Origin: Escherichia phage Bf23
DNA length: 64,000 nt
Strand: one strand, 5' to 3'
Sequence record: OR083247.1
Of the stretch, positions 9,848 to 53,107 are shown piece by piece; the stretch's first letter is position 1; each line of letters starts with the position of its first letter. The translations under genes were made by a program, and so were the position numbers. The notes under the pieces are model-generated. The model made no database searches and was not told the origin of the DNA. It saw only the letters and a list, made by a program, of their open reading frames with translations.

Positions 9848-9869
9848 AGCCCCTATATGGGGCTTTTTG
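9848..9869 (+). terminator. Rho-independent terminator
   Basis: AGCCCC-TATAT-GGGGCT followed by TTTTT. Confidence 0.7.
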
Positions 9870-9887
9870 TGTATTTGGGATATGTAA

Positions 9888-35670: not shown

Positions 35671-36281
35671 AGACTTTCCCTCAAGGAAAGTGAAATACCA
35701 GAATAAGTACCATTGTTATTTAGGGTAGAACCGAAGGAATCTCCGTTCATTAGCTTAGTTCTAAATAAGATACCATTAAAAACTGGTTTTTCACTACCCG
35801 TAGTAGTAATAAATAGATCAGGATATAGGGAAATATTCCATACGTTTCCTGAGCTACTAAAATTTGTTATTTTATAAACTTTAGGATGATTAGATAACTT
35901 AAATAAATCCCCAGCTTTTGGCTGCCCAGTCAAGGTTCCATTAGTATTTAGTATAATTTGAGAACCTTTTTGACCGGCAGGTATGGTAACACTCTTAGTA
36001 TCACCACGTACTCTAAATGCTTCATACTGAGGCAGGAGTACATCTAAATAATCTCCAGTTCTTTTATATTCTAAAAGCCTAGAGTCTAGAAATGCATATT
36101 CATCCGGGAAAAGTTCCGGGTATGAGATATTAATTCCCCAGTATTGAGCAGATATTTTAACCTCTTTGACTTTACCATTAGGTAATTCATCACGAATCAT
36201 AGGGTCGTTATCTACTAAATTGACGCTTTCAAAACCTAACCCTGGGTACTCTGGGTTCGTGTATGGATCTGGTAGTCTCAT
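35667..36281 (-). CDS. Distal tail protein (Dit), T5 pb9-like (204 aa)
   Basis: Size and position immediately downstream of the tape measure gene; 4-nt overlap with the pb3-like gene. Confidence 0.6.
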   Translation of the reverse strand: MRLPDPYTNPEYPGLGFESVNLVDNDPMIRDELPNGKVKEVKISAQYWGINISYPELFPDEYAFLDSRLLEYKRTGDYLDVLLPQYEAFRVRGDTKSVTIPAGQKGSQIILNTNGTLTGQPKAGDLFKLSNHPKVYKITNFSSSGNVWNISLYPDLFITTTGSEKPVFNGILFRTKLMNGDSFGSTLNNNGTYSGISLSLRESL

Positions 36282-36390
36282 AGTTAATTTCTCCTCTTTA
36301 ATAACAATATTATAATAGTATTGGAAAATTTTATCAAGAAATTTTTATTTTTCCATAAAGAAAAGGAGGACATAAAGTCCTCCTCCAATA

Positions 36391-39300
36391 TTAAGAATTA
36401 CCAAGAGATTTCAGGGTGGTTCCATTCTCATTAAGAGCCAGTTCCACGGCATCCCTGAAAGCAGTACTATTATTCGATGCAAAATCTCTGAAGCTTGCTG
36501 CATCCATAGTGCTGATATTCAGGATAATAGGTCTACCAGAAGAGGACCTTGATCCTTCGGAAAGCTGATCATTAGGCGTAGCTTTCATAGGAACCATAGG
36601 AGTAATTACCTCGGTACCATGCTCACCCATTTGATAGCTTACTCCAGGATACATCATACCGCCTTCCGCACGTGGAACAAAGGAGTTAGCATTACCGATA
36701 CCTTTATCACCACGTAGATAGGATAATTCTCCTGAGCTAGCTTGCATAGATACATCAACGTTCTTCTGTCGTTCACCTAGAGTTAAGTACTGAGTAGTAT
36801 CTGCCCCAGAATCCGCAATAGAAGACATGCCAGATGCAGAAGATGCTTGAGCAAGAGCTAACGCACCTGCTAAACCTGCCGCCACCATCAAAGGAATAGA
36901 GAACGGATATGGTACAGCTGTTGCTGCTTGCATTACTGCTACTGCTGTCTGGATGATGATCTGTTTCTTAGCTGCATCTTGCTGAATCTTCAGCTTTTCA
37001 GCTTCTAATTTTTTCAGCTTAGCTTTAGATGCCTCAGATTTGCCATCACGCTTCTGCTCTGCTGCAATAGCCTGATCAATTGCACTAACCTGCTGACTAG
37101 TACTGTATTGAATCATAGAAGCCACAGTCTGCATACCAGAAGCAATCATAGATGTAGTATCTAAAGACCCCTGGGAGAACTGAATCATAGAGTTGGTTAA
37201 ATTACCCATACTCTGAGCCACCGCGGTTGCTTCAGAATTTAATTCAGATAGCTTAGAGATCGCCTGGTCATAGGAGGCCATTCTATTCTGCATATCAGCA
37301 AAATCTTTATCCTCTCCAGATAGCCCAGTTGTAGGAGTATACGTAGCTCCCACAGAAGATCCTACTTGTTGCTGCATCTGACTTTCTCTCTGCTTTCTAA
37401 GTTGCTCTAAAGCGGCAGCAGTTTTATAAATCTCATTACGATACTTAAGCTCTTCTTCTGTATTACCCTTAGATAGCTCCAGCTGTTGCTGCAGAATGGA
37501 TAATCTTTCCGTAAGAATTTGGGATTGGCCAGTAACATTTCTTTGTGTTTGGCTGACTTCTAGTGCATCCATGAGAGCTGATACATGTGAGGCAGTTGCC
37601 TGCTTTTCTGCTTCCCATAGCTCTCTACTTATCTGTGCCTGAGCACGTCTTGACTGTTCTACCTTAGCTTGACCATCCGCTTGTTTAGAGTATAACTTCG
37701 CTTTTTCCTGCTCTAACTGCAGCTCTAGTCTTAACTGCGCCAAACGATACTGAGTACTCGTCATAGTGCGGTCATTCAGAAGAGCTATTTCTCTGTCAAC
37801 ACCAAGAATCTTATCAGTATAGTCTTTAACTTTCTTCTGAGCTTCCATACCCTGATTGGTAAGTTTAAGTTTCTCTAGCTGAATTTTTTCAATTTCTTTC
37901 TCAACAGCTTTATTCCCCTGGTTTGTTTGAAGAACACGGCGTAAAGCAGCTTCTTGCTCTTCTAACTGTTGCAACTCTAAACGTCTACCAGCTTCCTGAG
38001 CTTTTTCCTTATCCTTAGTTTGATTATATACATCAGCTATCTTCTGTTGAACTGCTAACTGATTTTTAGTCTCATTACCTGTTAATTTAACATATTCAGA
38101 TAGAGCTTGAGAAGCAGTTTTCATTTCAGATAGGGTATTAAACCCTAAGTTAAGATTTTTAACATACTCATCCGCACTCTTACCAGTTCCTGCGGAGAGA
38201 GATTCTACATTTCTAATTACCTCTTCAAAAGTTGCACTAGTTTTAGCAGCGGTATCTGTACTACTAGCTATATTTTGAAAGTCATTAGCTAAATCACTAG
38301 ACGTTTTCTTAGTTTGGTTATATGCTTTTTGTTGCTCTGTCAGACCTTTTAGAGCAGCAGAATTAAAGTCATATACAGCATCTGGGTCATATATATCTTT
38401 CTGTAGGTTAATCTGTTTCTGGAACTCTGGGTTAGCTTTTGTAGCAGCAGCCCCCGCGGTTTGAAATGCAGATTTCCAGGCATTGAGGTTCTCGGTAGAA
38501 TCAGTAACTTCTTTATCCAAGCGTGCTACTTGTAGACCCATAGCTGCAGTTTCTGCTACAAATTGCTTATTGGCCTCCGAAGCACCTGCTGCTGCAAGAC
38601 CAACAGGAATACCTTCACCAACTTGACGTATAGCTAATTTTGTATAGAAATCTGCTTGTTCCATTCGTTTATCGAACTCAGATTTTAGCTTATTACGCTT
38701 ATCAAGGGATTCCCTATACATATCTAGAGCTTTATTATATCCTTCCTCAGAAGCAGCCAAACTTAAAGCAACAGCACCAACGTTGGTAGGATCTATCTGT
38801 TTATTAGTTTTTTCTTGAGCTCTAGCTGCCTCAGCAGATACAGAAGCCTGAGATATATAGAATACCGTATTGATGGCATCGACTACTGGCCCTAAATACT
38901 TAGCAGCAGCTTGTTGTATTGTTCTTAGTGCAGCATCTGCGTTAGCAGCAAACTGCTCCCACGGAGTAGCACGCAGAACTTCATCTAGATATCCGAATTG
39001 TTTAGTAGATTCTGCTATAGCAGCCTTAGCGTATGCCTGCTGTTTCTGGAAAGTAGTAAGACTATTAATGTTATAAGTTATACCCGTGTTAGCAGCATTT
39101 AGCTGTTTAACATAGTCAGCATAAGCATCGTTAAGACGAATAGTAATACCAAGTTCATCCATAAGTTCGATTTCTTGTTTAGATATACCCTTAATTACAC
39201 GGTTAAGTGCATCAGTCATATCAACACCAAGAACAGCAGCTGCACGACGTGCTATCAAACCAAACTGCTCCAGTTGTTCCCTGTCAAATCCATAAGCGGA

Positions 39301-40071
39301 GGCAGTAGATGCTTGCCTCATAGCTTCTTCAAAAGAGATTGCATAGCCAGCTGCCTCTTGTAGTGATCTAGCAAGGGACTGAACAGGAGTACCTGTTATG
39401 GTGCCAACAATAGTACCAAACTGTTCTAACCTGTTTAGCTGATCACCTACTTTTAGGCTCTCAAAAGCAGTCTGTAGGACGAATACGTTAGAAGCAATAG
39501 CAGCGTATAATATTGGTAAACCACCACCAACTTTAGCCATTGCAGCAAAGTCACGAGTAGCTCCGCGTGCGGAACCGGAAGTATTACCTAAAGCTCTAGA
39601 AGCCCTACCAGCAGCACCAGCAGTGTCATTAAAACCTCTAGTTGTACCGCCTAAAACTCTATTGGTGTCATACAATCTATCTTGAACTTTCTCTGTTGCA
39701 GCTGCAACATCATTACCCATTGCTTTAACAGATCTAGAAACTCCATCAAATCCAATTTCTAGTTTATCTGTTACTTCAATAAGTTGGATAGCCAGGTAAT
39801 CTAGCTTATCACCAATACCATCAATGGATTTAGTGATGCCAGCCATACCCCTACTAGCTTGCATTTTAGTAAGACTTTTTGCTGCCCTGTCTGCTGCCCT
39901 CTCAATGGAGTATAGAGTTTTGGGCATTTTACCTAACTGTTCATTTGTCAGTTCGGAAGCAGCAGCAGCATTTTCTAATGCATCAGATACGTTTTCAATA
40001 GACTTTGCAGTACGGGTTGCCCCCTTCTGTTTAACGTCTATCAGTAATTCTCGTATTAGCTTATCAGTCAT
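36391..40071 (-). CDS. Tail tape measure protein, T5 pb2-like (1226 aa)
   Basis: Very long, Ala/Gln/Leu-rich, largely coiled-coil protein with hydrophobic segments near the C-terminus; canonical position. Confidence 0.85.
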   Translation of the reverse strand: MTDKLIRELLIDVKQKGATRTAKSIENVSDALENAAAASELTNEQLGKMPKTLYSIERAADRAAKSLTKMQASRGMAGITKSIDGIGDKLDYLAIQLIEVTDKLEIGFDGVSRSVKAMGNDVAAATEKVQDRLYDTNRVLGGTTRGFNDTAGAAGRASRALGNTSGSARGATRDFAAMAKVGGGLPILYAAIASNVFVLQTAFESLKVGDQLNRLEQFGTIVGTITGTPVQSLARSLQEAAGYAISFEEAMRQASTASAYGFDREQLEQFGLIARRAAAVLGVDMTDALNRVIKGISKQEIELMDELGITIRLNDAYADYVKQLNAANTGITYNINSLTTFQKQQAYAKAAIAESTKQFGYLDEVLRATPWEQFAANADAALRTIQQAAAKYLGPVVDAINTVFYISQASVSAEAARAQEKTNKQIDPTNVGAVALSLAASEEGYNKALDMYRESLDKRNKLKSEFDKRMEQADFYTKLAIRQVGEGIPVGLAAAGASEANKQFVAETAAMGLQVARLDKEVTDSTENLNAWKSAFQTAGAAATKANPEFQKQINLQKDIYDPDAVYDFNSAALKGLTEQQKAYNQTKKTSSDLANDFQNIASSTDTAAKTSATFEEVIRNVESLSAGTGKSADEYVKNLNLGFNTLSEMKTASQALSEYVKLTGNETKNQLAVQQKIADVYNQTKDKEKAQEAGRRLELQQLEEQEAALRRVLQTNQGNKAVEKEIEKIQLEKLKLTNQGMEAQKKVKDYTDKILGVDREIALLNDRTMTSTQYRLAQLRLELQLEQEKAKLYSKQADGQAKVEQSRRAQAQISRELWEAEKQATASHVSALMDALEVSQTQRNVTGQSQILTERLSILQQQLELSKGNTEEELKYRNEIYKTAAALEQLRKQRESQMQQQVGSSVGATYTPTTGLSGEDKDFADMQNRMASYDQAISKLSELNSEATAVAQSMGNLTNSMIQFSQGSLDTTSMIASGMQTVASMIQYSTSQQVSAIDQAIAAEQKRDGKSEASKAKLKKLEAEKLKIQQDAAKKQIIIQTAVAVMQAATAVPYPFSIPLMVAAGLAGALALAQASSASGMSSIADSGADTTQYLTLGERQKNVDVSMQASSGELSYLRGDKGIGNANSFVPRAEGGMMYPGVSYQMGEHGTEVITPMVPMKATPNDQLSEGSRSSSGRPIILNISTMDAASFRDFASNNSTAFRDAVELALNENGTTLKSLGNS

Positions 40072-40085
40072 AATTTATTTTTCCC

Positions 40086-40118
40086 AATAAAAAAGGCTCT
40101 GGGCAAATCACCCAGAGC
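40086..40118 (-). terminator. Rho-independent terminator upstream of the tape measure gene
   Basis: On the - strand: GGCTCTGGG-loop-CCCAGAGCC followed by TTTTTTATT; shares the module TTTTTTATTGGGAAAAATAAAT with 45079-45100. Confidence 0.65.
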
Positions 40119-40154
40119 CAAGCCTCATCGTGGAACGCCCATTGGAGGAAACTT

Positions 40155-40523
40155 TTACCGTGCGCGAGATCTAGCATGTGGCTTAACGTTAGGAATCCTT
40201 CCGTTTTGCGGTTTATGCTTCTCAGCACGTTTACGTGCAGCATCTACAGCTTTAGCATCAAATATATTGATAATGTGTAGAACAAATTCTTTTTCTATGG
40301 GATCAGTAATCCCATAAATATCAAATAAAACACCTAAAGCAGCCTTGTCTTTACCTATAAAAATAGGGAAGTCACCAGGTATGAAACAGTCAACTAGACT
40401 ATTATAAATATTCATACTAATAGCTACAATAGGTGGAAAGTCTTCAAGTTCAACAGGCATAGCTTTAGGATCAGGCTCTATACCCATTGATTCACAAAGT
40501 ATTAAATATTGTTGTTTAGTCAT
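40155..40523 (-). CDS. Putative tail assembly chaperone (122 aa)
   Basis: Position immediately upstream of the tape measure gene; weak own RBS; its frame is open for 9 codons into the 3' end of the upstream gene. Confidence 0.45.
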   Translation of the reverse strand: MTKQQYLILCESMGIEPDPKAMPVELEDFPPIVAISMNIYNSLVDCFIPGDFPIFIGKDKAALGVLFDIYGITDPIEKEFVLHIINIFDAKAVDAARKRAEKHKPQNGRIPNVKPHARSRAR

Positions 40524-40584
40524 TTTAGATGCTGAGCTTTTAATACACTTATCTGCAAAATCAGCAACAGCATCTAGTAATTCT

Positions 40585-40989
40585 TTACGCTTTTGAGCTA
40601 CGAAAAGTATCTAAGTGGAACACTGTCTGGTTGATCCAAGAATCAAACGCAGCAGAGTTCTGCATAAGCATTACAGCATTATCACGACTAAATGGAACTT
40701 CAGTAGCAGGATCAGCATCTGTTTCAATCAGCATGAGTTTTTCAACGTCACCTACAGTCAAACCAGTCCAACCTTTAATCGCAGCATCAACGAAAGCTTC
40801 AATGAACTTATCATCATCCTGTACCTGAATCAAAGTACCATTAACCCACTCATCACGCTTAGCAGAGGTGATAACTCGTTTAGAAGTAGCACGAGACATA
40901 TAATTAAGCTCTAGCTTAAAGTTTGGCATACCTGGGTATGCAAGAGTGACAGTACGAGTTTCTAAAGTAATATCTTTTAAGTTAATCAT
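40585..40989 (-). CDS. Putative tail assembly chaperone (134 aa)
   Basis: Position between tail tube-side genes and the tape measure gene. Confidence 0.45.
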   Translation of the reverse strand: MINLKDITLETRTVTLAYPGMPNFKLELNYMSRATSKRVITSAKRDEWVNGTLIQVQDDDKFIEAFVDAAIKGWTGLTVGDVEKLMLIETDADPATEVPFSRDNAVMLMQNSAAFDSWINQTVFHLDTFRSSKA

Positions 40990-41885
40990 TATTTTCTTTC
41001 TCCAAAGAAGTTTATTTCTACAGGATCTGAATCAGCAGTAGGAATTACATCATACTCTACCTGATACAAATCTGAGAATTTTAGGCGTTTTGAAATACGT
41101 GCTAAAGGAAATGTTACAGAAACATATTTATTTTTAATAATTAGTGGAGTTCTTGTTTCAGGATCTAGATTCAAGAACTTATCTCCTACCAATCTCTTAA
41201 CGTAATAGAAAGCTAACGTTGCAGAAGCATTCATTTCATTGACATAAGCTCGTTTATTAGTATAAACTTTATTTATATCAAATATACTTCTATCTTCTCT
41301 CCAAGAACATTGTTGCTGGAAGGACATAGATGCTGAAACTAATGCAGGCAATGGTGCGCTATTAGTATACACAGCTGGAGGACTATATGGGAGTACTTCA
41401 CCTTGTGTAATCGTATATCCATCACGGAAAGTAGATACTTCAGAGAATTTTCCAGACTCAATACCAACATTTAGGATCGGTATACTCTTATCTAGAGAAA
41501 AGTCAACTGTTGATACATAACAGTTTTCAAAGTAAATACAGCTATTATTACGGTTAATAATATACATATTGAACATAATAGGTTCAATATTGGGAGTATT
41601 TCTTGGCAAAAATAAAGAATTTCCCTCACGCGTGAATCCCATCCAATCAAAGAAGTTAGATTCAATAAGCGTAGTACTGAAATTTATTGCCAATGAAATA
41701 GATGAAGGATCTTGAGCATTAATAATAGAGTCTGCATAGTTTGTACGATTATGAATAGTACGTCTAAGAGTTTTAAACTCTTGAAAAGACGTACTAGCGT
41801 CATAGTTAGAGAGGGCATCGAAATGATACCCTCTACCGTCGTACTCAATAACTATTTTAGACTCTCGCATGAGAGAATAAAACAT
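40989..41885 (-). CDS. Minor tail protein, T5 p140-like candidate (298 aa)
   Basis: Gene order directly downstream of the tail tube gene; no motif. Confidence 0.5.
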   Translation of the reverse strand: MFYSLMRESKIVIEYDGRGYHFDALSNYDASTSFQEFKTLRRTIHNRTNYADSIINAQDPSSISLAINFSTTLIESNFFDWMGFTREGNSLFLPRNTPNIEPIMFNMYIINRNNSCIYFENCYVSTVDFSLDKSIPILNVGIESGKFSEVSTFRDGYTITQGEVLPYSPPAVYTNSAPLPALVSASMSFQQQCSWREDRSIFDINKVYTNKRAYVNEMNASATLAFYYVKRLVGDKFLNLDPETRTPLIIKNKYVSVTFPLARISKRLKFSDLYQVEYDVIPTADSDPVEINFFGERK

Positions 41886-41889
41886 TTAA

Positions 41890-43284
41890 TTAACCACCTG
41901 CTGTTACAGTAATAACTTTAGTGCCTTTAACACCAGAGCCATCTTTAGCCGTAGCTTCAACAGTTACCGCACCTGTTTTACTAGCATCTGCTGTTAACAG
42001 TCCTGTTGCATTGATAGTAGCTGCATCACCGGCAGTGATAGCCCAAGTAACTTCCTTATTCTTTGCGGAAGAAGGAGTAACTTCAACACTCATCTGAAGA
42101 GTAGCTGATCTATTTAATGTAGCAACATTTCCAGCAGACTTAACAGTAATTGCGGTTACAGCTTCAGAAGCACCGTCACCATTAACAATTAGATTATTAA
42201 TAGTTGTTCTAGTATACTTACTAGAGAAGCCTAAGTAACCTTCGTCACCAGCATCCAGATCTGACGGAATAGCCTTAAATTCTACTGAAGTACCAAGCAC
42301 ATCATCAGTCTCAATAGTAGGAATATTAACGTGCGCCTGTTTAGCTACCAGAATGGCAGCAGGACGTTCCTCGTCATATTCGCCACCAAGTACTAGAGCA
42401 ATTTCGAAGCGGTTAACTACCTTCAGAGTTTTGATAAGATCTTTATATAGTTCCATAGAACCAAGAGATTTATCATTCAGGTAAGCAGTTAATGAACCAG
42501 TTAACTCAAAAGCACCAGTAAATGAGCCGATCGGAATAGTAACACGAGACATTACGTTAGGTGTTAGGTAAGTAATGTTGTTGTTAATAGTAAAAGTACC
42601 ACCGGTAATCGGTATATCATAAGACTTATCGGTATCCATGTCCTTGATCTTCAAGATCGTTAGTTTGTTCTTAATGTAAGAACCCTGGATAGTCATATAA
42701 GTTTCGTCATCAATACCTATTTGATCTGGATCAAATGGTTGCTCATCCAGTGGGATTAGCTGGTTACCATTACCAGACCAAGTTACACGACCAATATCTT
42801 CAATATCAACGTTAACTTCTGCCTGATTAATCTGACAGGAATCGATATAACTCCATGTTTTATCAGTCAGAATGTAAATATGTAACATTGCTAACTCATG
42901 ATAGGAGTTATCTTTAAAGTTAACCATGAAGTTAGTAGCATTATTATGTGCTCCAGTAGTTCCTTCAAGATTAATAGCTCTACCACTAGAAAGTGCATGC
43001 CATAACATATAGTCAGGAACAATTTGTTTGCTAGTAGTTTTATCTTTATACGGCAGGATGTAAGTAGAGAAACTCCACTCAGCTGCGTTTAAAGAGTCGT
43101 TAAAACGTTTAGAACCACGAGTTGGACGCGGACCAGCTTCATTAACAGTAATATCTGTTGAGTTACTGTCCTGACCCCAAGAAATATCATCCTGAACTAG
43201 AATCTCTTGCGTGTTGGTCTTATTGTGACCAGTCTTAACCGTAGACACGAAGATTCGAGTATTACGTAATAGTTGTAAAGACAT
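41890..43284 (-). CDS. Major tail tube protein, T5 pb6-like, with C-terminal Ig-like (Big_2-type) domain
   Basis: 464 aa as recalled for T5 pb6; C-terminal ..VTWAITAGDAATINATGLLTA..VTVEATAKDG.. Ig-like pattern. Confidence 0.75.
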   Translation of the reverse strand: MSLQLLRNTRIFVSTVKTGHNKTNTQEILVQDDISWGQDSNSTDITVNEAGPRPTRGSKRFNDSLNAAEWSFSTYILPYKDKTTSKQIVPDYMLWHALSSGRAINLEGTTGAHNNATNFMVNFKDNSYHELAMLHIYILTDKTWSYIDSCQINQAEVNVDIEDIGRVTWSGNGNQLIPLDEQPFDPDQIGIDDETYMTIQGSYIKNKLTILKIKDMDTDKSYDIPITGGTFTINNNITYLTPNVMSRVTIPIGSFTGAFELTGSLTAYLNDKSLGSMELYKDLIKTLKVVNRFEIALVLGGEYDEERPAAILVAKQAHVNIPTIETDDVLGTSVEFKAIPSDLDAGDEGYLGFSSKYTRTTINNLIVNGDGASEAVTAITVKSAGNVATLNRSATLQMSVEVTPSSAKNKEVTWAITAGDAATINATGLLTADASKTGAVTVEATAKDGSGVKGTKVITVTAGG

Positions 43285-43310
43285 TTAATTATTTTCTCCT
43301 AATCTGTAAC

Positions 43311-43796
43311 TTATCTGCGAAGTGACCTACGTGGAGGCTGATACCTCACTGTTACATTTATTTCTGCTAAACCATATGGGGCCAGTAGACCCTCATCTGT
43401 ACTAACTGATGTAATGATCATATCAGTTGCCTCACATGGGAAGGTCGATCCATTAGGTTTACTAACAGTATATTCTAAATTTCCACCTGTGTCAATAACG
43501 GTTTTTATATCCGCTACGAGTTTTTCAAGTTGCTCTTGAATGTCTGTTTTCTCTTTATCGTACACCAGGATTGGAAGTTCTAAAAACATCCACTGTTGGC
43601 CTGAAGGAAGATACTGCCCAGTTTCAGTTCCGATATGAACTGCTACATAAGGAAACTCTCGTATTTCCTCAAATTTATAAGTTTGACGAGAAACGTTTCC
43701 ATATAGGTTATTAAAATATTCGTCAGGTTGAGAACCATCCATTTGTTTAGAGATTCGGTCAACCATAGCTTGTGCAATACTTGTTCTATGGTCCAT
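43311..43796 (-). CDS. Tail terminator-like protein (161 aa)
   Basis: Position just upstream of the tail tube gene; size. Confidence 0.5.
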   Translation of the reverse strand: MDHRTSIAQAMVDRISKQMDGSQPDEYFNNLYGNVSRQTYKFEEIREFPYVAVHIGTETGQYLPSGQQWMFLELPILVYDKEKTDIQEQLEKLVADIKTVIDTGGNLEYTVSKPNGSTFPCEATDMIITSVSTDEGLLAPYGLAEINVTVRYQPPRRSLRR

Positions 43797-43799
43797 TTA

Positions 43800-44567
43800 T
43801 TAGGTTCCTTGATTAACCTTAATTTTATATCTGGAGTGAATCAGGTCTCTTGCAGCTTTTGCTATAGCCTCACCAATAAGTTTTTGTGGGTTTCTAGCGC
43901 CAGGATAAGGTCGTAGAGATAATCTTCTATATGTAGATACTGCTGGGTTGAATACAGAATATGGACGAGTCATATAATTATATGTTACGTTTAATTCAGG
44001 AGAGCCTTTACTAATTTCAGAATCACGAAGCATAACATCTTTAATTTTTAAAGAGTTTGCAAAGCGACCAGTTCTAAATTTTAACGGTGCTCCAGCTTTT
44101 TTCATATCCTTTATTAAGTATTCTTTAGCAACTATCTCTAATATAATTTTCATATTGCTGTTAGACACGAAACGTCCAGAAGCACCTGTTACTGCACCAG
44201 AATATCCATCTTCAACATCACTAGGATCACCAAAGTTTACCTGCACTCTACCAGTAGAACGTTTTTTACCTACTGAGGATTTTTTACCAGCGGTTGCTTG
44301 TATTAGGCTCTCCAGAGCACCTAAATCTCCAGAAAGATCTAAACTAGAGGATATAGCCTTTAATATAGAAGCTGTTCTAATGTTAAGGAGATCTTGTGAT
44401 ACAGGTTTTGAAAACTTAAAAGATACTTGAGCAACAGTACCATCTCTAGTAGGATCTTTTAATCCTGTTTCAACAGAGTATACAACAGTATTCTTATTGT
44501 TCTCAGATCGGCTTGCAGTATCTAGCTGCTCTTTAATAATTTGTCTAGCTAGATCAGAAAGAGACAT
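43800..44567 (-). CDS. Putative tail completion / neck protein (255 aa)
   Basis: Gene order between head and tail genes only. Confidence 0.45.
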   Translation of the reverse strand: MSLSDLARQIIKEQLDTASRSENNKNTVVYSVETGLKDPTRDGTVAQVSFKFSKPVSQDLLNIRTASILKAISSSLDLSGDLGALESLIQATAGKKSSVGKKRSTGRVQVNFGDPSDVEDGYSGAVTGASGRFVSNSNMKIILEIVAKEYLIKDMKKAGAPLKFRTGRFANSLKIKDVMLRDSEISKGSPELNVTYNYMTRPYSVFNPAVSTYRRLSLRPYPGARNPQKLIGEAIAKAARDLIHSRYKIKVNQGT

Positions 44568-45079
44568 TATACTCTCCTATATACTTCAATAATAGTACGA
44601 ATATGCTCTGGAATACCAGATTTAGTATTATTGAATGTTACTGTTTCACCACCAATTGTTTTAGCTTGGCGATAATCTTGTTTGTGCCAATGATCTACTA
44701 GCATACATGCTGCAAGTTTGAGATCTTCAGGCATTGGATTAAATCCACCTTGTGTATATTCTACGTCCATATAACCTTCCGGAGGGTTAAATTTAAGAAG
44801 TATAACCCCATCAGAATACAGCTTATACTGTTCGGGATCTATCTCCTTATCATTAATAGTCATTTTGGTTACTGAAGTAGCTGAGGGAGAACTTAAAAAG
44901 TATTTTTTTCGAGCAGGTTTTGTATTGATTAACTGGTCTACCGCATCAGCATCATCCATACCTAAAAGGCTAGTAATCAGCGCATTGGCAGCAGTAATCA
45001 TCACCTCTACTCCAGATTCTAGTTCCGGTCGTTTTAACCCGCCGTATAATCTATAGTCTTCAGCTGTGATTATTTGCAT
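44567..45079 (-). CDS. Putative head completion / head-tail adaptor protein (170 aa)
   Basis: Gene order directly downstream of the major capsid gene and terminator. Confidence 0.45.
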   Translation of the reverse strand: MQIITAEDYRLYGGLKRPELESGVEVMITAANALITSLLGMDDADAVDQLINTKPARKKYFLSSPSATSVTKMTINDKEIDPEQYKLYSDGVILLKFNPPEGYMDVEYTQGGFNPMPEDLKLAACMLVDHWHKQDYRQAKTIGGETVTFNNTKSGIPEHIRTIIEVYRRV

Positions 45080-45089
45080 TTATTTTTCC

Positions 45090-45118
45090 CAATAAAAAAG
45101 GAGAGCCGAAGCTCTCCT
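45090..45118 (-). terminator. Rho-independent terminator downstream of the major capsid gene
   Basis: On the - strand: GGAGAGC-TTCG-GCTCTCC followed by TTTTTTATT; same flanking module as 40086-40118. Confidence 0.7.
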
Positions 45119-45138
45119 TATCGGCTGAAAAGCCTGTA

Positions 45139-46515
45139 TTAAGATGCAGCGTAAGTACCAGATACAACGCCATTATTAAAGTAACGTTGCAGGTTAACAC
45201 GCTGAGTAACGTAGTATGCATCACGCTGTTTACCAGCTTGGCGCTCACGTTCAACAGTAACAGCACGCTGACGCGGCATTACGAAGTTATCTTTATAAAC
45301 AATAACTGCGAACTCTGCTGAGTTAGCTTTAGCTGGGAAGAATTCAGAAACTACAACCGGCAGACCATAAATACGACCAACCTGACCTTGCAGTTTAACA
45401 GCATCGTTACCAACCTGTGCAACATCCTGCCATTCTTCATCTTCCAGCAGATCGTAGTAAGCATCCATAGATACGATCAGTACCAGCTTACTCAGTTTCA
45501 GACCATGACGGCCCAGTTTACGACGCAGTTTAGAGATAGTCTTAGCAGTTACTTTTATGGAACCATCAGCTTTAGCTTCTGTAACAACCTTAGCACTATC
45601 TTCACTAGCAAGGGTCAACAGACCTTTCGGCTTACCAGAACCATCACCAGTCATAAACGCTTCTTCGATAGAAACAGCGTGTGCTTCAATCAGACGCTTA
45701 CGCAGCAGCGGCAGCAGGGAGAAGATTGCATCTTCTTCAGTTTCATCAGTAATGAAGGATTTAGCAGCCAGTTTGTAGGTTTTAAAACTAATTTCAGTTA
45801 ATGTACCTTTAACTTCGTTACCAGTAGTAGTATCAGTACCATAAGCGGAAGCATCTACCCAAGTAGCTTTACCAGCTTCTGGTTCAACCAGCATAGTAAG
45901 AATCTTACTAGACATCGGCAGCTCTTCGAACAGTGCGCCAACTACCAGTTCTTTCTGCAGGTCACGAATGATACGGGTAGAGAAAATAGTTTCGTAGTTT
46001 TCGCTAGAAACCTGAACTGAGGAAGAAGTGTTTACAGCTTTAAGGTGATTCTGACCATGTTCAGTTTCGAATACGCCTTTTTCCATTACATAAGATAACA
46101 GAACCAGTTTTTCAACTTCATCTTCAAAGGCTTCCTGAGTACCGTACAGTGCTTTAGCAACACTATCACCAACGAAGGAACGACCTTCACGAGCTGTTAG
46201 CAGAGATTTGATTTCGTCCTGAAGACCAACAATAGTTTCCTGCTGTTTTTCTACGGTTTGTGCAAACAGTTCTGCACTCTTCTTAGATTTCTCATCCAGC
46301 GACTTAACCAGTTCCAGAGCCTCTTCCAGACGCTTACGGTCTTCGCCAACTGCTTTAGAAACCAGGTCATTCATACGAGCCAGTTCTTTTTCTTCCTGCT
46401 CTTTACGCATACGTTCAGCTTCCTGAGCTTTCTGAGCAGCGGTCAGACCTTCCAGAGATTTAGCCAGATCACCCAGACCAAGTTCTTCTTTCAGCTTATT
46501 AATATCAATAGTCAT
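45139..46515 (-). CDS. Major capsid protein precursor, T5 pb8-like (458 aa)
   Basis: N-terminal coiled-coil scaffolding-like region (MTIDINKLKEELGLG..KEQEEKELARM..), size equals that recalled for T5 pb8; followed by a terminator. Confidence 0.8.
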   Translation of the reverse strand: MTIDINKLKEELGLGDLAKSLEGLTAAQKAQEAERMRKEQEEKELARMNDLVSKAVGEDRKRLEEALELVKSLDEKSKKSAELFAQTVEKQQETIVGLQDEIKSLLTAREGRSFVGDSVAKALYGTQEAFEDEVEKLVLLSYVMEKGVFETEHGQNHLKAVNTSSSVQVSSENYETIFSTRIIRDLQKELVVGALFEELPMSSKILTMLVEPEAGKATWVDASAYGTDTTTGNEVKGTLTEISFKTYKLAAKSFITDETEEDAIFSLLPLLRKRLIEAHAVSIEEAFMTGDGSGKPKGLLTLASEDSAKVVTEAKADGSIKVTAKTISKLRRKLGRHGLKLSKLVLIVSMDAYYDLLEDEEWQDVAQVGNDAVKLQGQVGRIYGLPVVVSEFFPAKANSAEFAVIVYKDNFVMPRQRAVTVERERQAGKQRDAYYVTQRVNLQRYFNNGVVSGTYAAS

Positions 46516-46532
46516 TTTTAAATAATTCTCCG

Positions 46533-47165
46533 TTATTCTTTAACGTAGCCTAAAGCTATCGCAAGTTTTTCTAGTTCAGAAAGATTACGTTCTTGAGCTG
46601 GGACAGCTTTAGAACTTATTGCAGTAAAAGATTTACGCCATTCAGTATAATCATGACCATTCATGCTCTTAGCGAGATTGAACGTTGAGTCTTGATTACA
46701 AGGTACAGAAACTACCGAAACTTCGTATAGTTCTAAATCTTTAATAATAAATATATCAGTAGCTTCATCCCACTCTGCATCTAGGCAGCGGAATCCGATA
46801 CTAAAAGTTTTCAGTACACCGTTCTTAATTAGTGAAAAGATAGCCGGATCAGAACTTTCATAGATCTCGCATTCTATTTCGAGACCCATTTCAGTAGGGT
46901 TAAGATCAATACACTTACCGATTGGACGACGATGATCGTGTCCGAAAAGAATAATCGGGTTTTTCATGTAGTTAGTAAGTGCATTAGACGTTTTCCACGC
47001 AGAAGCAGGAATTACATCACCAGCGCGATCTTTACTAATTGTATTAGCGAATCCACGGATTTTTACAACACCTTCTTTGGATTCGCTATCAATAGATTTA
47101 ATATAAGCATCTAAATGAACGGGTGCTGATTTTAACTTGTTATAGTCAATAGCAGCTTGTGTCAT
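46533..47165 (-). CDS. Prohead protease, T5 pb11-like (210 aa)
   Basis: Position immediately upstream of the major capsid gene; size. Call by synteny. Confidence 0.6.
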   Translation of the reverse strand: MTQAAIDYNKLKSAPVHLDAYIKSIDSESKEGVVKIRGFANTISKDRAGDVIPASAWKTSNALTNYMKNPIILFGHDHRRPIGKCIDLNPTEMGLEIECEIYESSDPAIFSLIKNGVLKTFSIGFRCLDAEWDEATDIFIIKDLELYEVSVVSVPCNQDSTFNLAKSMNGHDYTEWRKSFTAISSKAVPAQERNLSELEKLAIALGYVKE

Positions 47166-47168
47166 TTA

Positions 47169-47660
47169 TTAGCCTCCAACACCAGGGTTAACTGTCACAG
47201 TACACGCAGTAGAGTCCTTACTTACTCGCTTACTATCTGTTACAGTTACTTTATAAGAGCCGGCATCCTCAGCTGCTGCTGCAGGCTTAGTATATGTAGC
47301 TCCTGAAGCTTCCGGAATAGGGGAACCATCTTTAGTCCATGCATAAGTATATGGACCAGTACCACCAGTTGCAGTAACAGAAAGAGTTAACGTTGCTCCA
47401 GTATCAACTGACATGCTAGCAGTTAAATCTTTAGAAAGAGTTAACGGTGGGGCCGGTGGAGCAGGAGGAACTGCTTTACCATAAGCCTCTACAAATTTCT
47501 TCCATACTTTACGGTTAGTATGCGCAGATGAAAGCCCTAGTTCTCTACGCAGAAAAGCATAGCTAGGAACATATTTATGCGCAGCAACCGTAGCAAAGAA
47601 GATATGAGATTCTGGCAGTTTTTCACCAAAAATGGTCTTTAGACCATTATAATCAATCAT
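47169..47660 (-). CDS. Capsid decoration protein with Ig-like C-terminal domain, T5 pb10-like
   Basis: C-terminal ..LTLSVTATGGTGPYTYAWTKDGSPIPEASGATYTKPAAAAEDAGSYKVTVTD.. Ig-like pattern. Confidence 0.6.
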   Translation of the reverse strand: MIDYNGLKTIFGEKLPESHIFFATVAAHKYVPSYAFLRRELGLSSAHTNRKVWKKFVEAYGKAVPPAPPAPPLTLSKDLTASMSVDTGATLTLSVTATGGTGPYTYAWTKDGSPIPEASGATYTKPAAAAEDAGSYKVTVTDSKRVSKDSTACTVTVNPGVGG

Positions 47661-48874
47661 TCTTTATCTCCCTCGGTGGAACCTTGAGGTCTACCACCTT
47701 CTTGACCAGATACACCTGTTGCAGAACCAGCAACGTTAGCAGGAATACGAATCCTATCCATCTGCTCATCATCTAAAGGTTCAAGGTTCAGCTCTAAACG
47801 AGCTTCGTTACCAGTCATAATACCATTATTAACCAATGAGGTTAAATGTTTAGCCTCAGCTTCTTTATCTGGTGTTAATGCAGCTACCTCCTTAGTATTA
47901 GGGGTAATCTTATAACCAAAAAAGAAAGTAAGAGAACTAGTCAGTTTGTTCAGCATAGGAATGATAGTCATATAATAGAACAATTCGATGTTTGGTCGAA
48001 TATTCGCATTATTACCACCATCAAGCAGTACTTGCGGAACTCCAAAGGCTAGACAAATAGATTTATTAAATCCTTCGATGTCTTCCTTAAAGTCTAGATC
48101 TTTAAAAGAGGATATTTGGGAGTACGGTTTAGCTTTCATACCACCATCTAGAATCAGGACAGAAGACTGACCCGTACTAGGATTATAATCGAGTTGTAAT
48201 TCTTCTTGTTTACGCTCACGCAATTTCTTGTTCAGGATTTCATCCGTTTCAAGAATAAGACCAATCACGGTTCCGTTATCGAGGAATTTCTCTTTAAAGT
48301 TAAGCATTTTAGAACGCTTTTCAAGGGAATCAATAACAGTAGCAACACGAGATTGTCCAGAAATTTGAGAGTTTGTGCCACACACGTAACTGTTATCCTT
48401 TATAAAGATAATCTCATCTACGCGATAGTTTATCTGATTATTAAATATAAATTTTTTGATAAACTTATTGGCATCTGCCTCGACCTGCATAAGAGCAGCC
48501 GGGACATGGTAAAGCGATGTGCCATCCCAATAGATGTATGCACAACCTTCAAAAAGTAGGTCAGTGACTACAAGTCTACGGAATGTGCTTATATCCATGA
48601 ATGGATTAGGTCGTACATTTAAGAGAGTGTCTAGAGTCTTTGTCTTGACGCCATTGGCATACGTGACAATATTATATTTATCTCCGACAGTATAAGAACA
48701 CTCCGCCGCACTATCTATAACCATATTAGCAGTTCGATTGAGAATCTCAATCTTGCTATAGGCTTGTCCAGTGGTAAAAGGCTTACGGTTAGTGCGATGA
48801 CTAACTGGTTCCATGTCTCTTATAATACGTTGACCCGGATTTAGCTTTTCAGTAATCCAGCTTTTAAAACCCAT
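47657..48874 (-). CDS. Portal protein, T5 pb7-like (405 aa)
   Basis: Size and position between the terminase-side genes and the head genes. Confidence 0.7.
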   Translation of the reverse strand: MGFKSWITEKLNPGQRIIRDMEPVSHRTNRKPFTTGQAYSKIEILNRTANMVIDSAAECSYTVGDKYNIVTYANGVKTKTLDTLLNVRPNPFMDISTFRRLVVTDLLFEGCAYIYWDGTSLYHVPAALMQVEADANKFIKKFIFNNQINYRVDEIIFIKDNSYVCGTNSQISGQSRVATVIDSLEKRSKMLNFKEKFLDNGTVIGLILETDEILNKKLRERKQEELQLDYNPSTGQSSVLILDGGMKAKPYSQISSFKDLDFKEDIEGFNKSICLAFGVPQVLLDGGNNANIRPNIELFYYMTIIPMLNKLTSSLTFFFGYKITPNTKEVAALTPDKEAEAKHLTSLVNNGIMTGNEARLELNLEPLDDEQMDRIRIPANVAGSATGVSGQEGGRPQGSTEGDKE

Positions 48875-49311
48875 TATAAGAACCTTGAGAATCCTGATTT
48901 TGTTTCAGTCTTGACTTGTGTCTTTTCTTGAGGATTCTGTATTTTGTCTTTCTGCTTTTGAACCCATGCTTTCTGTTTATTAGCAGAAAATAATGGAGGT
49001 TCTTTTGTGTAAACCTTATGTAGTAGTTGGTGATGGTGTACACAAAGGGTAACAGTGTCTTCTACTAGCTCATGCCTATATCGATCATAGAATGCCGTCC
49101 TATTTGAAAGGACTGTTTCTTCGTCAGTGAAATCCAATTGGAGTTCTTTAGCAAATTTTTTAACTAGTAGAGACACCGTATGGTAATGATGAAGCTCTAA
49201 TTCTTCAGCACAACCGCAGATAGCACATTGAGAGTCTTTTTTATATTGACTTTTTATTCCGTCTCTCATAAGGGATATAGCATCGCGTTTATATTTTATA
49301 TTGCTTGCCAT
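48874..49311 (-). CDS. HNH endonuclease-like protein (145 aa from ATG 49311 after RBS GAGGAG)
   Basis: CAICGC..ELHHYH..N..CVHHHQLLH fits the HNH zinc-finger nuclease pattern. Confidence 0.6.
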   Translation of the reverse strand: MASNIKYKRDAISLMRDGIKSQYKKDSQCAICGCAEELELHHYHTVSLLVKKFAKELQLDFTDEETVLSNRTAFYDRYRHELVEDTVTLCVHHHQLLHKVYTKEPPLFSANKQKAWVQKQKDKIQNPQEKTQVKTETKSGFSRFL

Positions 49312-49425
49312 AGTGTTCTCCTCAACTGTATGAATATAGTATACATAATCGTATCGAATTTGTAAAGGGGATTTTAAAATGCAGGAATGGGATACCAACT
49401 GAGTAGTATCCCATCCTATACTTAT

Positions 49426-50742
49426 TTATTTACCACGGGAAATAGAGTAAATTCCATAGCGGAGCGCATCACAAAGGTGAGAGTTAGCATCATGACGTGG
49501 TTTTTCACGCGATAATTTCTCTTCACCTTCTTGGAAGTCCCACTTATAGTTCTGCAATGCATGAATTAAGGAAGAACATGAGGCATCCACAATAATCTTA
49601 CCCTGCTGGAATAACGCTTGCAAACATGCTAGGCCATCTAGGACAGATTTTTTAGCTGGAGCTGATGCAATTTCGTGCTCGTAAGCTAAGTCCTGGCGGA
49701 ACTGAGCGGCGGCAGAGTCAACAAAAATACGATCAACTTTATAACGATCTATACAGTGCTGAATATAAGCAGCATGCTGAGCTGTAGTTTTCTCCGCCTG
49801 CTGGTATTCTTCTAGTACATAGTAGGTATCCGTATCGTAATGATATTTAATAGTAAGAACTGCTGTAGGATCACGATAACCAACGTCAATACCAAGCAAT
49901 GTTTCGAATGCTTCATCATCTTTAAAGAAGTGACGCATACCTTTGAGGTCTTTAACATGATCGATAGCATTAAAGGTATCAAAGATCTGACCTTCGAATA
50001 CAGAGAAGTCAGCCTCGTATTCCTGGCGGAAGTAGTTTTTACTAACTGTACGCCGTGCTTCCTCAATGTCATTCAGGTCAGCACGTGGGTTATCACGGTA
50101 TGTACCATGAATAGATACCCAGTTAGGTAACGTATCATCAAATCCGTAGGCGTAAAATTCTTTAAACCAGTTACCTCCACGAGGTGTGGAAATAAATAGA
50201 GCCTTAGAGTTAGGTTTATCTAGAGTAGGACGCAGCTGAACCCTGAAGGCATCACCACCCACATCGGAAATTGCCGCTTCGTCAAAGATGATAAAATCAT
50301 ATGAACGTCCAACTGCGGAGTCAGCCTGGGCCGCGGAAGCTAGTTTAAATAGAGAACCATTAGCTAACTCAATCTCTTTATCTTTAGCGTTCTCACGTTC
50401 TGTTTGCAACCCATACTTCTTAATAAGACCACGAATCTGAGACCATCCGATATTGGCCAGTGAGTAGTTCGGGGCAACTACTAGTACCTTCACATTAGGT
50501 TCCAGCAATTTTAGGAACCCAAGTGTATATGCTATAAAAGATTTACCTACACGGCGTGATACACACGCCGTTACAAAACGATGTCTAGGGTCTTCTAGGG
50601 CATTGATAATTGCTATTTGAGGGCCGTTAGGTGTAATACCCTCTTGTGCTAATATTCCAGAAACAGGTAGACGGAAGAAACGTTTGTCTATTCCGAAATC
50701 AATAACGTCTACTGTATTAACATAGGGTCTTGATACTTCCAT
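49426..50742 (-). CDS. Terminase large subunit
   Basis: Walker A-like ACVSRRVGKS, Walker B FIIFDEAA, C-terminal nuclease-like region; canonical position. Confidence 0.85.
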   Translation of the reverse strand: MEVSRPYVNTVDVIDFGIDKRFFRLPVSGILAQEGITPNGPQIAIINALEDPRHRFVTACVSRRVGKSFIAYTLGFLKLLEPNVKVLVVAPNYSLANIGWSQIRGLIKKYGLQTERENAKDKEIELANGSLFKLASAAQADSAVGRSYDFIIFDEAAISDVGGDAFRVQLRPTLDKPNSKALFISTPRGGNWFKEFYAYGFDDTLPNWVSIHGTYRDNPRADLNDIEEARRTVSKNYFRQEYEADFSVFEGQIFDTFNAIDHVKDLKGMRHFFKDDEAFETLLGIDVGYRDPTAVLTIKYHYDTDTYYVLEEYQQAEKTTAQHAAYIQHCIDRYKVDRIFVDSAAAQFRQDLAYEHEIASAPAKKSVLDGLACLQALFQQGKIIVDASCSSLIHALQNYKWDFQEGEEKLSREKPRHDANSHLCDALRYGIYSISRGK

Positions 50743-51224
50743 TACTTTTTACCTCCAGTAGCTAGGGAAGTAATTAAGTCCATGTAGTTTTGGTCCCCAG
50801 CTCCAGCAATAATGTTATTCTGAATATTGGTCTGATTAGCAGGAGCACGGACAGCAGCTTTAGCTTTTTCTAACTCCACCATCATTTTCATCTCTTCCAT
50901 CTTCATTTTGTGTGCTTTCCAGAGAATATCCATAATATCCTGGTCAGAACCCATGCCAGTTTCTTCTAGCTCCTCTAGTTTACGTTTAATAACTTCATCT
51001 AGAACACCAAACAAACGATCCCTATTACGGAATCCACTTTCCATAAAAATATCATTTAAGTAGTTCTTAACTTCACTACGATTCATAATATCTCGGAAAG
51101 CAATTTCGGACATTCCAAGACTCCGTGCGGCAGAAGGCACATCACTGCCGCACTGTAAATAAGCTTCAATCACATCCATCCCTTCAGGGGACATAAGATC
51201 TGGTACTAATACATCATTTGCCAT
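50742..51224 (-). CDS. Putative terminase small subunit / HTH DNA-binding protein (160 aa)
   Basis: HTH-like segment [19 protein letters not shown]; directly upstream of and overlapping the terminase large subunit gene. Confidence 0.5.
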
Positions 51225-51234
51225 ATTTCCTCCT

Positions 51235-53022
51235 TTAGGTAAGGCGTTGAATTGTTACTCTTAATCTAGGTAAGAAGACGGCGGCGGATTCATTTGCATG
51301 TATAACCACACCTAGCTCAGCATTACCATTACCCAGATTTTTAATAGTATAAATAAACCCACTTCTACGAAATGTTAAATCATCTGGTCGGCTAGCCCAC
51401 CGTTGTGTATAACTATAGGAAGCTGTAGTATGAAATGGCACCAAATGGTTAGGAGGTAGGGTTAATATTTGATGAAATATCCCATCACCTCCTGTATAAC
51501 TTTGCTGCCTTCTCCCCTGCACTTGCCATGCAGTGCCACCATATGTTCGTATAGGACCTCCTGCTGTATTAAGATTTCCAGCAACCACCTCAGTAGTTAG
51601 GATTACTGTAGAGTTTGCATTTGGTAGCCCAAGACTTACTGTGGATAAGGCTACATACTTATTACCTGTACCCGGGTAAGAAGGGTTTATATCATCGCCT
51701 ATGTAAGTACTGGCTACGTTATTTGGTAGTAATCGTAAAGGCACTGACGAAGGTCCCCAAACAACCCCGTGCTCATTACCTATAGTATTATTGTTGGAAT
51801 TAACGTACCATTGTTTACCGGCGGAGAACTTGTAAATACTTATCTGAGACTTAGAACCCCCATAATTTACGGGAGACCATAGAGACCCCTTATTAGACCC
51901 CACAATTTCGCATCTTGCTGTAGTATCTCCAAATACTCCAGTATAAGCAACGTTATTTCCAATATATTCCATATCAGGCCTATACCCTAAGTTACCAAAA
52001 GCATTCTGATTAATAAATTTGTAGCTAGTATTTGGAAGACTAACACCTTTTATAGTAAAGTTAGAGGGGCTTATACGAATATCGGATCCAGTAAATGGAT
52101 TACTAGCAACGCTCATACCACCATTAGAGTACCTAAGATTCAGCACATACCAGATAACTTTGGTTGGAGTAATATTATAACTATCCTGCACATACTGCTT
52201 CTTTGCTGCTTGTGATGCTAAGTTAGATGTTGAGCCTCTACATACATAAACCTTATCTGGGTAGGTTGAAGAGTTGTATAGTACACTAACATTACTTGGC
52301 GTAGTACCTTTTTTACCAGCGTATCCACGTATATTGGAGTTACAAACATAAAACCAAGTATGCCCCCTTTTCCCCGCCCCTATAGGAGCCTGCCAGTTAG
52401 GGTGCCAGAAGTCAACATTACCACTATTTATCGATACTTTAGATGCTCCGGCTGGAAATCCTGCTAAAGTCCACGCTCTGCCCATAGCTTCAGCAGCGTA
52501 CGCCCCTCCTGGTCCGTATAAGTTAAACCCAGAAGCCTGTGATATAGTACCACCAGTACCTTGTCTAGCTATTGACTCCTCATGGCCTAGACTAGAGCTA
52601 TACGTATAGGTACCATGTGCTAAACTATTACCAGATGCAAAAGCTGATGTAAGACCTACTTCAGCACCAGCCCTACCAATAGGGGGGTCTTCAAAAAATG
52701 CAAGAAATTGTCCAACTTGGGATTGAGTACCATTCAAAAAACCACGATGAGTACCATTAATTTCAACAGCGGTTAGTATAACTCTACCAGGATCATTGCT
52801 CTTTAGATTAGCTATTACAGAAGGCATTTGGCATACAAAGAACCCATTACCCGCGTTACTTAACGCACTCTCATATGTACTCTCGACTAGAACAAATGGC
52901 ATATCAGAATGAAATATAGTATTGGCGTTAGGAGTTTTGTGAGCATTAATATCCCCACCATTCACCTTGTTTAGTGATAATACAGTTTTACCATCACTAT
53001 ATTTTCCAGCGAAAAAACCCAT
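51235..53022 (-). CDS. Receptor-binding tail protein, T5 pb5-like (595 aa)
   Basis: First gene of the late strand, divergent from llp; N-terminus MGFFAGK..TIFHSDM resembles my recollection of pb5. Receptor specificity cannot be read from sequence. Confidence 0.6.
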
Positions 53023-53047
53023 ATAATCTCCTATTATAAAAATGTAT

Positions 53048-53095
53048 TTGCTTTTATCTCTCTATTTTGCTATAATAGACTCATAAATTAGAAAT
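53048..53095 (+). promoter_or_regulatory. sigma70 early promoter for llp
   Basis: TTGCTT (53048-53053), 17-bp spacer, TATAAT (53071-53076), leader TCATAAATTAGAAATGGAGAG. Confidence 0.65.
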
Positions 53096-53107
53096 GGAGA
53101 GATAAAT

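Follow-up and report, generated by a model that had tools for sequence, protein, structure and literature searches.

Identical terminator and ribosome-binding-site junctions at two late-gene boundaries of a T5-like phage as probable read-through attenuators conserved in Demerecviridae

In bacteriophage T7, the incomplete intrinsic terminator T-phi lies right after capsid gene 10, and the downstream structural genes are served by read-through only. In Escherichia coli, the rplL-rpoB attenuator, a partial intrinsic terminator within an operon, lowers the distal transcript and is the classical case of stoichiometry by read-through. Here we analyse two junctions of related design in a 64,000-nt stretch of Escherichia phage Bf23 (sequence record OR083247.1; hereafter the window), where a GC-rich hairpin of the late (minus) strand is followed by the same 22-nt module and then by a start codon, that of the tape measure gene at site 1 and that of the first gene past the major capsid gene at site 2. 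We consider it probable that at each copy of this repeat a Rho-independent terminator, ancient and found family-wide, meets the ribosome-binding site (RBS) of the next gene, and that the two terminators act as attenuators. Like T-phi, the terminator proposed at site 2 would be incomplete and lies right after the gene of the most abundant virion protein; T-phi differs in acting on T7 RNA polymerase, whereas T5 uses host sigma-70 RNA polymerase, in that its next RBS does not abut the U-tract, and in having no sequence relationship to the elements described here. The rplL-rpoB attenuator is likewise an intra-operon partial terminator that lowers the distal transcript, but it is part of a host operon whose intercistronic region is long and whose RNA is processed by RNase III, with terminator and RBS unfused. 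Site 1, with tandem hairpins after a stop codon and a drawable alternative pairing, also recalls trp-type leader-peptide attenuators; however, it has no leader peptide of regulatory codons and its alternative pairing is weak, and we do not class it there.

The closest described elements are those of the relatives. The window is from a T5-like phage (Tequintavirus): megablast of positions 39000-46000 against phage genomes matched 548 records, with T5 and T5-like Salmonella and Escherichia phages at the top (~95% identity), and the 84 nt around site 1 are identical in Escherichia phage Gostya9. The same two elements, one after the major head gene and one before pb2, are annotated as terminators among T5, HASG4, AKFV33, PR1, Slocum and Sugarland, the site 1 hairpin in all six. 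The T5 record AY543070 lists them as putative rho-independent terminators (96553-96587 and 101563-101586), both are annotated in HASG4 and one or both in PR1, Slocum, AKFV33 and Sugarland, and the Slocum and Sugarland records place an RBS immediately after the hairpin. The readable portions of the record annotations make no mention of identical junctions, family-wide conservation or missing promoters. An Rfam search of 34000-54000 returned no credible match, and the BF23, phiR2-01 and gpT5.026 papers contain no transcript mapping of site 1 or site 2. The hairpins are already annotated publicly and the attenuator principle is textbook knowledge; the novelty is modest and consists of the family-wide promoter-less design and an unexplained hairpin at site 1.

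An exact DNA search found two copies of the 22-mer TTTTTTATTGGGAAAAATAAAT in the window, both on the late strand, at 40073-40094 and 45078-45099; none of 100 dinucleotide-preserving shuffles contained a match, even with 3 mismatches tolerated. A repeat finder extended the identity to 24 nt (CC plus the 22-mer; late strand CCTTTTTTATTGGGAAAAATAAAT, 40073-40096 and 45078-45101) and returned a diverged third copy with 79% identity at 36343-36366. The hairpins GGCTCTGGGTGATTTGCCCAGAGCC (40119-40095) and AAGGAGAGCTTCGGCTCTCCTT (45119-45098) lie directly before copies 1 and 2, respectively, and folding of hairpin plus module against shuffles gave z scores of -4.8 at site 1 and -4.1 at site 2. At site 1, a single base separates the 22-mer from the ATG of the 1226-aa tape measure open reading frame (ORF; 36391-40071, minus strand), so that the module (U-tract, weak Shine-Dalgarno (SD) element, A-rich spacer) is followed by U and the AUG. 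At site 2, the last two bases of the 22-mer belong to the ATG of a 170-aa ORF (44567-45079, minus strand), and the module-to-start spacing differs by 3 nt between the sites. The earlier note had reported a 22-nt repeat that follows a GC-rich hairpin at both sites and leads into a start codon, which the exact search and folding confirm; its coordinates were right within a few bases, as were its assignments of the tape measure and major capsid genes. By its layout, the 22-mer is a composite of a 9-nt putative terminator U-tract (UUUUUUAUU) and 13 nt (GGGAAAAAUAAAU) comprising a predicted weak SD (GGGA) and an A-rich spacer. These two parts occupy the entire 22-25 nt from hairpin to start codon, with almost no neutral sequence between them, and the junctions are therefore identical within Tequintavirus and nearly identical elsewhere. 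The exact 21-mer occurs in 47 stretches of viral contigs, all but three of which are T5-like genomes with two copies ~5 kb apart; T5 itself has one copy only.

The hairpin half has the anatomy of intrinsic terminators. The site 1 hairpin (GGCUCUGGGU-GAUUU-GCCCAGAGCC, 40095-40119, minus strand) has a 10-bp stem and a 5-nt loop (-19.1 kcal/mol), and that of site 2 (AAGGAGAGC-UUCG-GCUCUCCUU, 45098-45119, minus strand) a stem of 7-9 bp closed by a UUCG loop (-12 to -14.5 kcal/mol). The U-tract stands immediately 3' of both stems, and T5-7 is found at this position in every lineage. Rough d'Aubenton-Carafa-type scores of 43 (site 1) and 15 (site 2) are the two highest among five late-strand candidates. 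In relatives, site 1 stems occur as five different sequences among 9 lineages and site 2 stems as three distinct sequences, each of them fully paired (lineage variants GGCUCUGGG/CCCAGAGCC, GGCCUAGGG/CCCUAGGCC, GCUCUAGGCG/CGUCUAGAGC, GCCUUGG/CCAAGGC and GGGCAGGGC/GCCUUGCCC). Pairing was assessed by per-sequence folding in register; a MAFFT alignment of 13 site 1 sequences failed to line up the 3' arms, and RNAalifold did not recover the terminator from it. On the predicted pairing, the stem substitutions between lineages are compensatory evolution of an RNA hairpin. Because the GC-rich stems abut a T-run and show compensatory changes family-wide, the comparison supports both hairpins as genuine, though predicted, intrinsic (rho-independent) terminators. 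The site 2 core GGAGAGCUUCGGCUCUCC is invariant in most genera, and other, fully paired stems are used in loci L029 and L043; a stable C(UUCG)G hairpin, from which single mutations offer few ways out, may be behind this invariance. Folding also predicts a small hairpin (GGCUUUUCAGCC, 45123-45134, minus strand) between the capsid stop codon and the site 2 terminator, which is present in most relatives as GGC..GCC with a variable loop and absent in L045, L029 and L043.

The other half of the module is supported as a putative RBS. GGGA stands 7 nt before the AUG at site 2 and 10 nt before it at site 1, and its anti-SD duplex energy of -4.2 kcal/mol, against a median of -6.6, is the fifth weakest of 21 late-strand genes. 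In relatives, the G-rich element lies 7-10 nt before the ATG and takes the forms GGGA, GGGT, GGA, GGAG, GAGG, AGAGG, AAGGA and AGGTGA, which are SD variants only. Slocum, PR1 and DU_PP_V do not share the GG element at the third late-strand terminator, which precedes no start codon; the element is kept only where a start codon follows, which supports the SD reading. The third copy had also suggested that the 3' half of the module might be part of the terminator; this was rejected, as GG is not conserved there and the A-rich tract lies 5' of the -35 element of the promoter that follows. In T5, a 753-nt gene (T5.141) is inserted between TTTTTTATT and the pb2 start, and the module is split accordingly: the hairpin keeps the U-tract half, and pb2 keeps the RBS-like cAGGAAAACATTAG-ATG (GGAAAACATTAG-ATG). 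The U-tract and RBS halves are therefore separable.

Across 30 Tequintavirus loci of IMG/VR, the two junctions hardly vary: they share the core TTTTTTATTGGGAAAAATAAA, and variation is confined to the last few bases before the tape measure ATG. Among more distant Demerecviridae we sampled Serratia phage Slocum, Klebsiella phages, Pectobacterium phage DU_PP_V, Providencia phages PR1 and PSTCR5, and several metagenomic lineages, in which capsid protein identity falls to 53-70% and that of the tape measure N-terminus to 31-51%. In all Demerecviridae sampled, the layout is kept at both orthologous positions (GC-rich hairpin, T5-7, AT(T/A), G-rich element, A-rich spacer, ATG), and the elements are 62-100% identical to the window, compared with 50-77% for the coding DNA that flanks them (300 nt). 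The site 2 element (43 nt; 45077-45119, minus strand) is 100% identical in T5-like phages and Providencia PR1 (L038 / L047), whereas identity is 55-66% in the 300 nt of coding sequence next to it; in PSTCR5, megablast with the 7-kb query matched this element alone. No change at one site has a counterpart at the other within Tequintavirus, and outside Tequintavirus the two copies of a genome differ by 2-6 nt. The unmirrored changes indicate that the identity of the copies reflects shared constraint and not ongoing copying; gene conversion between the copies was rejected on the same observation. The description of the module as duplicated, made in the earlier note, is misleading: the sites are orthologous family-wide and change independently, and the repeat is not a recent duplication.

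A sigma-70 scan of the minus strand for -35/-10 pairs with a 16-18 nt spacer found none in 40072-40135 or 45080-45140, and the 22-25 nt from hairpin to ATG are too short for a promoter; a promoter inside the module was rejected on both counts. In T5, the late genes are served by the sigma-70 RNA polymerase of the host, which starts at sigma-70 promoters (PMC7472727). As no promoter lies in the interval from hairpin to ATG, transcripts of the genes past sites 1 and 2 must therefore arise by read-through. Good late-strand sigma-70 sites occur at three places, 49366-49338 (before the head genes), 43495-43467 and 36337-36309. The second corresponds to T5 P-J5 (TTGACA-17-TATACT, 11/12 consensus matches; promoter P-J 5 at the equivalent position of the T5 annotation), inside the T5.146 homolog and upstream of the tail tube gene, and the third to T5 P-G25 (TTGATA-17-TATAAT, 11/12; promoter P-G 25 in AY543070). 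P-G25 follows the third late-strand terminator (36343-36386, minus strand; hairpin 36386-36362), which lies after the tape measure gene, is also a terminator in the T5 annotation, and contains the partial module copy; next come this promoter and a strong SD instead of a start codon. The hairpin, T-run, AT-rich stretch, sigma-70 promoter and SD of this third site are conserved in Slocum, PR1 and DU_PP_V. Unlike sites 1 and 2, it is a predicted stop followed by restart. The P-G25 region downstream of this terminator (36281-36343, minus strand) also contains the leader ATTAAAGAGGAGAAATTAACTATG, which presumably matches the 'RBSII' of pDS/pQE expression vectors.

Per-gene RNA levels are available for the Tequintavirus phage Bas33 (HildyBeyeler, MZ501074.1; the record has the same coordinates as the table) as transcripts per million (TPM) at 20 min after infection in two replicates (2026 PNAS paper, Dataset S1; PMC13250531). 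Bas33 carries both hairpin-module elements and P-G25. TPM values (replicate 1 / replicate 2) were 225 / 133 for the terminase large subunit (gene 0002), 2766-5136 / 1416-3009 for genes 0003-0007 (nicking endonuclease to capsid), 5136 / 3009 for the capsid gene itself (0007) and 1971 / 1267 for an inserted gene before site 2 (0008). After site 2, they were 221 / 122 for head completion (0011), 377 / 231 for tail completion (0012) and 211 / 117 for the tail terminator protein (0013), the last gene before P-J5. The tail tube gene after P-J5 (0014) had 718 / 408, the minor tail protein gene (0015) 247 / 143, the T5.143 homolog (0016) 205 / 121, the T5.142 homolog before site 1 (0017) 373 / 211, the tape measure gene after site 1 (0018) 169 / 96, and the distal tail gene after the terminator and P-G25 (0019) 327 / 199. 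TPM thus falls 23-25-fold from the capsid to the head-completion gene (9-10-fold if counted from the inserted gene) and 2.2-fold from the chaperone (T5.142 homolog) to the tape measure gene in both replicates, and it rises at each known promoter, 3.4-3.5-fold at P-J5. The drop in transcript level that the earlier note had predicted across these sites is seen in these data, which are gene-level and steady-state, from one time point and from a congeneric phage rather than the window's own.

Taken together, these results point to a scheme in which polymerases reading through the terminator would be the only source of head-completion, tail-completion and tail-terminator mRNA after the capsid gene; the tape measure gene, after the chaperones, would likewise be expressed only by terminator read-through. 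Attenuation and a weak SD would then keep the low-copy virion proteins below the capsid and tail-tube proteins. The earlier note had proposed tuned partial termination that sets structural-protein stoichiometry. Terminator anatomy, conservation, the promoter-less genes and the RNA steps in Bas33 speak for the partial termination, but termination at precisely these positions, the fractions of read-through and a purpose in stoichiometry are what we infer from them.

We weighed this attenuator explanation against four others. That the shared sequence is an operator bound in trans by a factor of the phage or the host (be it a translational repressor, an antiterminator or a small RNA), which would co-regulate the head-completion and tape measure genes and make the terminator and RBS features secondary, appears improbable to us. 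Such an operator would account for the exact identity of the two sites, for the higher conservation of the elements than of flanking coding DNA and for the unchanged 43-nt site 2 element in T5-like phages and PR1, and UUUAUU/AAUAAA can form a 6-bp hairpin with GGGAAA in its loop. However, this AU hairpin is very weak, and any U-tract with an A-rich spacer would form one; T5 itself is viable without a contiguous site 1 module; and the copies diverge within genomes outside Tequintavirus, with variants unmirrored between the sites and a G-rich element that drifts among SD variants and not to a fixed motif. A recent duplication, a gene-conversion product or a mobile-element footprint with no function of its own is highly improbable. 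Exact identity over 24 nt and the insertion of one accessory gene family at both intergenic regions in different phages would fit such an origin, but the positions are orthologous in every Demerecviridae genome examined, the exact 21-mer is present as two copies per T5-like genome and is not dispersed, site-specific variants are not copied to the other site, and the insertions differ in position (at site 1 they follow the U-tract, at site 2 they precede the small hairpin). A dispersed-repeat or mobile-element pattern was not found either: the module is always at the same two junctions, and flanking repeats were not found. We give hardly any credence to a late promoter within the module that restarts transcription of the downstream gene. 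The module is AT-rich and its partial third copy overlaps the region upstream of the P-G25 -35 element, but between hairpin and ATG there are only 22-25 nt with no -35/-10 pair, T5 late promoters are of the sigma-70 type, and a start inside the module would yield an mRNA lacking an SD.

About as improbable as the operator is the possibility that the hairpins are mainly RNA stability or processing elements, i.e., stem-loops protecting the 3' ends that remain once an endonuclease has cut within the AU-rich module, with the RNA steps reflecting differential decay. An AU-rich single strand beside a stable hairpin is a context preferred by RNase E, which counts in favour of decay, and steady-state RNA-seq cannot separate termination from it. 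On the other hand, intrinsic terminators are defined by just such an arrangement, a GC-rich stem with an unbroken U6 directly behind it, and every lineage has kept it; the U-tract would be superfluous in a stabiliser, and stabilising and terminating roles are not exclusive. Several observations do weigh against attenuation at these sites. TPM measures steady-state RNA, in which equal steps would arise if a 3' hairpin stabilised the RNA upstream of it. At site 1, the fall is no more than 2.2-fold despite the stronger predicted terminator, and the large step at site 2 comes from Bas33, which has a weaker stem variant and a ~650-nt upstream insertion, where two tiny ORFs have near-zero counts that are uninterpretable. 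Bas33 also shows a 2.9-fold fall from the tail tube gene to the next gene across a 4-nt gap (L220:9963-9968; window 41885-41890) with no predicted terminator. Not every RNA step therefore reflects a terminator, and this fall suggests differential mRNA stability or processing. Finally, the complete site 2 identity between T5-like phages and PR1 exceeds the obvious need of a generic terminator and RBS, with L029 and L043 using other stems; there may be a factor that recognises this near-invariant element by its sequence.

Site 1 has a further element that the attenuator explanation leaves aside. Its non-coding leader is ~85 nt (83-87 nt) and is kept from T5 down to relatives with 31% tape measure identity; a coding role of this spacer was rejected, as these lengths differ by non-multiples of 3. 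Right after the chaperone stop codon, folding and the relatives indicate a second hairpin (hairpin A, 40120-40154, minus strand), whose anti-SD-like 5' arm UUUCCUCCA is paired with GAGG or GGAGG. The motif TTCCTCCA is invariant in 12 of the 13 distinct site 1 sequences, with TTTCTCCA in DU_PP_V; the arm persists even with the tape measure N-terminus down at 31-51% identity, and the 64-kb window has no second copy of the motif. An alternative pairing of an upstream segment with the 5' arm of the terminator can be drawn in 5-6 of 9 lineages and beats shuffled arms at p<=0.05 in one of the 9, with energies of -6 to -11 kcal/mol versus -18 to -28 kcal/mol for the terminator. This antiterminator pairing, which emerged from the RNAalifold run, was no better than shuffled arms in most lineages. 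It is conceivable, though we think it unlikely, that the site 1 leader is a translation-sensing switch in which ribosomes ending the chaperone gene open hairpin A and alter read-through or tape measure translation; were this the case, tape measure supply would be coupled to chaperone supply.

The late minus-strand genes run from capsid through the T5.148, T5.147 and T5.146 homologs, tail tube, T5.144 homolog and chaperones to tape measure. The major capsid gene (T5 pb8 / D20-21 homolog, 45139-46515), upstream of site 2, is an ORF with 95.5% DNA identity to the T5 gene annotated as major head protein, and the first gene past site 2 (44567-45079) is the T5.148 homolog, for which relatives give the names head completion and head-tail adaptor. 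The tail tube gene lies at 41890-43284 and the chaperone genes at 40585-40989 and 40155-40523, the latter being the T5.142 homolog (tail assembly chaperone in DU_PP_V) and the last gene before site 1; the tape measure gene was assigned by its ORF and T5 comparison (pb2 / D18-19 homolog). In the region 40155-40610 (minus strand), the start of the T5.142 homolog lacks an SD (-0.1 kcal/mol), and its frame is open for 29 codons 5' of the ATG, overlapping the end of the T5.143 homolog, as expected for a lambda G/GT-type programmed frameshift in tail assembly chaperones; the T5.142 homolog is probably the 'T' part of a G/GT pair. Elsewhere in the window, direct repeats with 21-nt (7-codon) spacing (GCATTAGTTTCTGA-like; 29789-30126, plus-strand coordinates) lie inside a 1265-aa ORF (26476-30273, minus strand) and are probably heptad or collagen-like repeats of the long tail fibre gene.

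One accessory gene family, named 'putative homing endonuclease' in some records, is inserted in both terminator regions in different phages. Its members have a CapR homology domain (2e-24) and a treble-clef zinc finger, with the motifs GSRCPKC, FYIQKL, LKYGIT and LPDGYTETC. At site 1, the insertion follows the U-tract (T5.141 of T5, L001:2565-3317; IrisVonRoten), and at site 2 it comes after the capsid stop codon and before the small hairpin (L003, L012 and L034 at about 9400-10050; Bas33, L220:6148-6718, where the gene is broken into three ORFs). Look-alike junctions also occur outside the late block. On the early strand of the window, at 9840-9890 (plus strand), the hairpin GCCCCTATATGGGGC is followed by TTTTTGTGTATTTGGGATATGTAAATG; the late strand is therefore not alone in joining a terminator directly to a UUGGGA-type RBS. 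In an unrelated ~42-kb siphophage contig (L176:7592-9531, minus strand; identical in L204), a different hairpin, GCCGCTTTTAAGCGGC, precedes an identical 21-mer and the ATG of the contig's own 639-aa tape measure-like gene, with no detectable similarity to T5 late proteins. This suggests a generic optimum reached more than once, or an exchanged junction. A loose structural-pattern scan of viral contigs gave mostly chance matches, and after filtering left the known T5-like loci and one unrelated look-alike (L120).

A T5 virion is built with about 775 copies of the capsid subunit, 120 of the tail-tube subunit and 3 of the tape measure protein. The late block appears to be wired as a promoter, the head genes, a leaky terminator, low-copy connector genes, P-J5, the tail tube and chaperone genes, a leaky terminator, the tape measure gene, a terminator with P-G25, and the tail tip genes. 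No new kind of mechanism is revealed by this arrangement. It is of use for the annotation of Demerecviridae and for the engineering of T5-like phages, where cargo placed at the junctions, as natural accessory genes are, will change downstream dosage. For the phage itself, read-through at the two junctions would explain part of the very unequal output of virion proteins from one co-oriented block, in a phage that relies entirely on host RNA polymerase.

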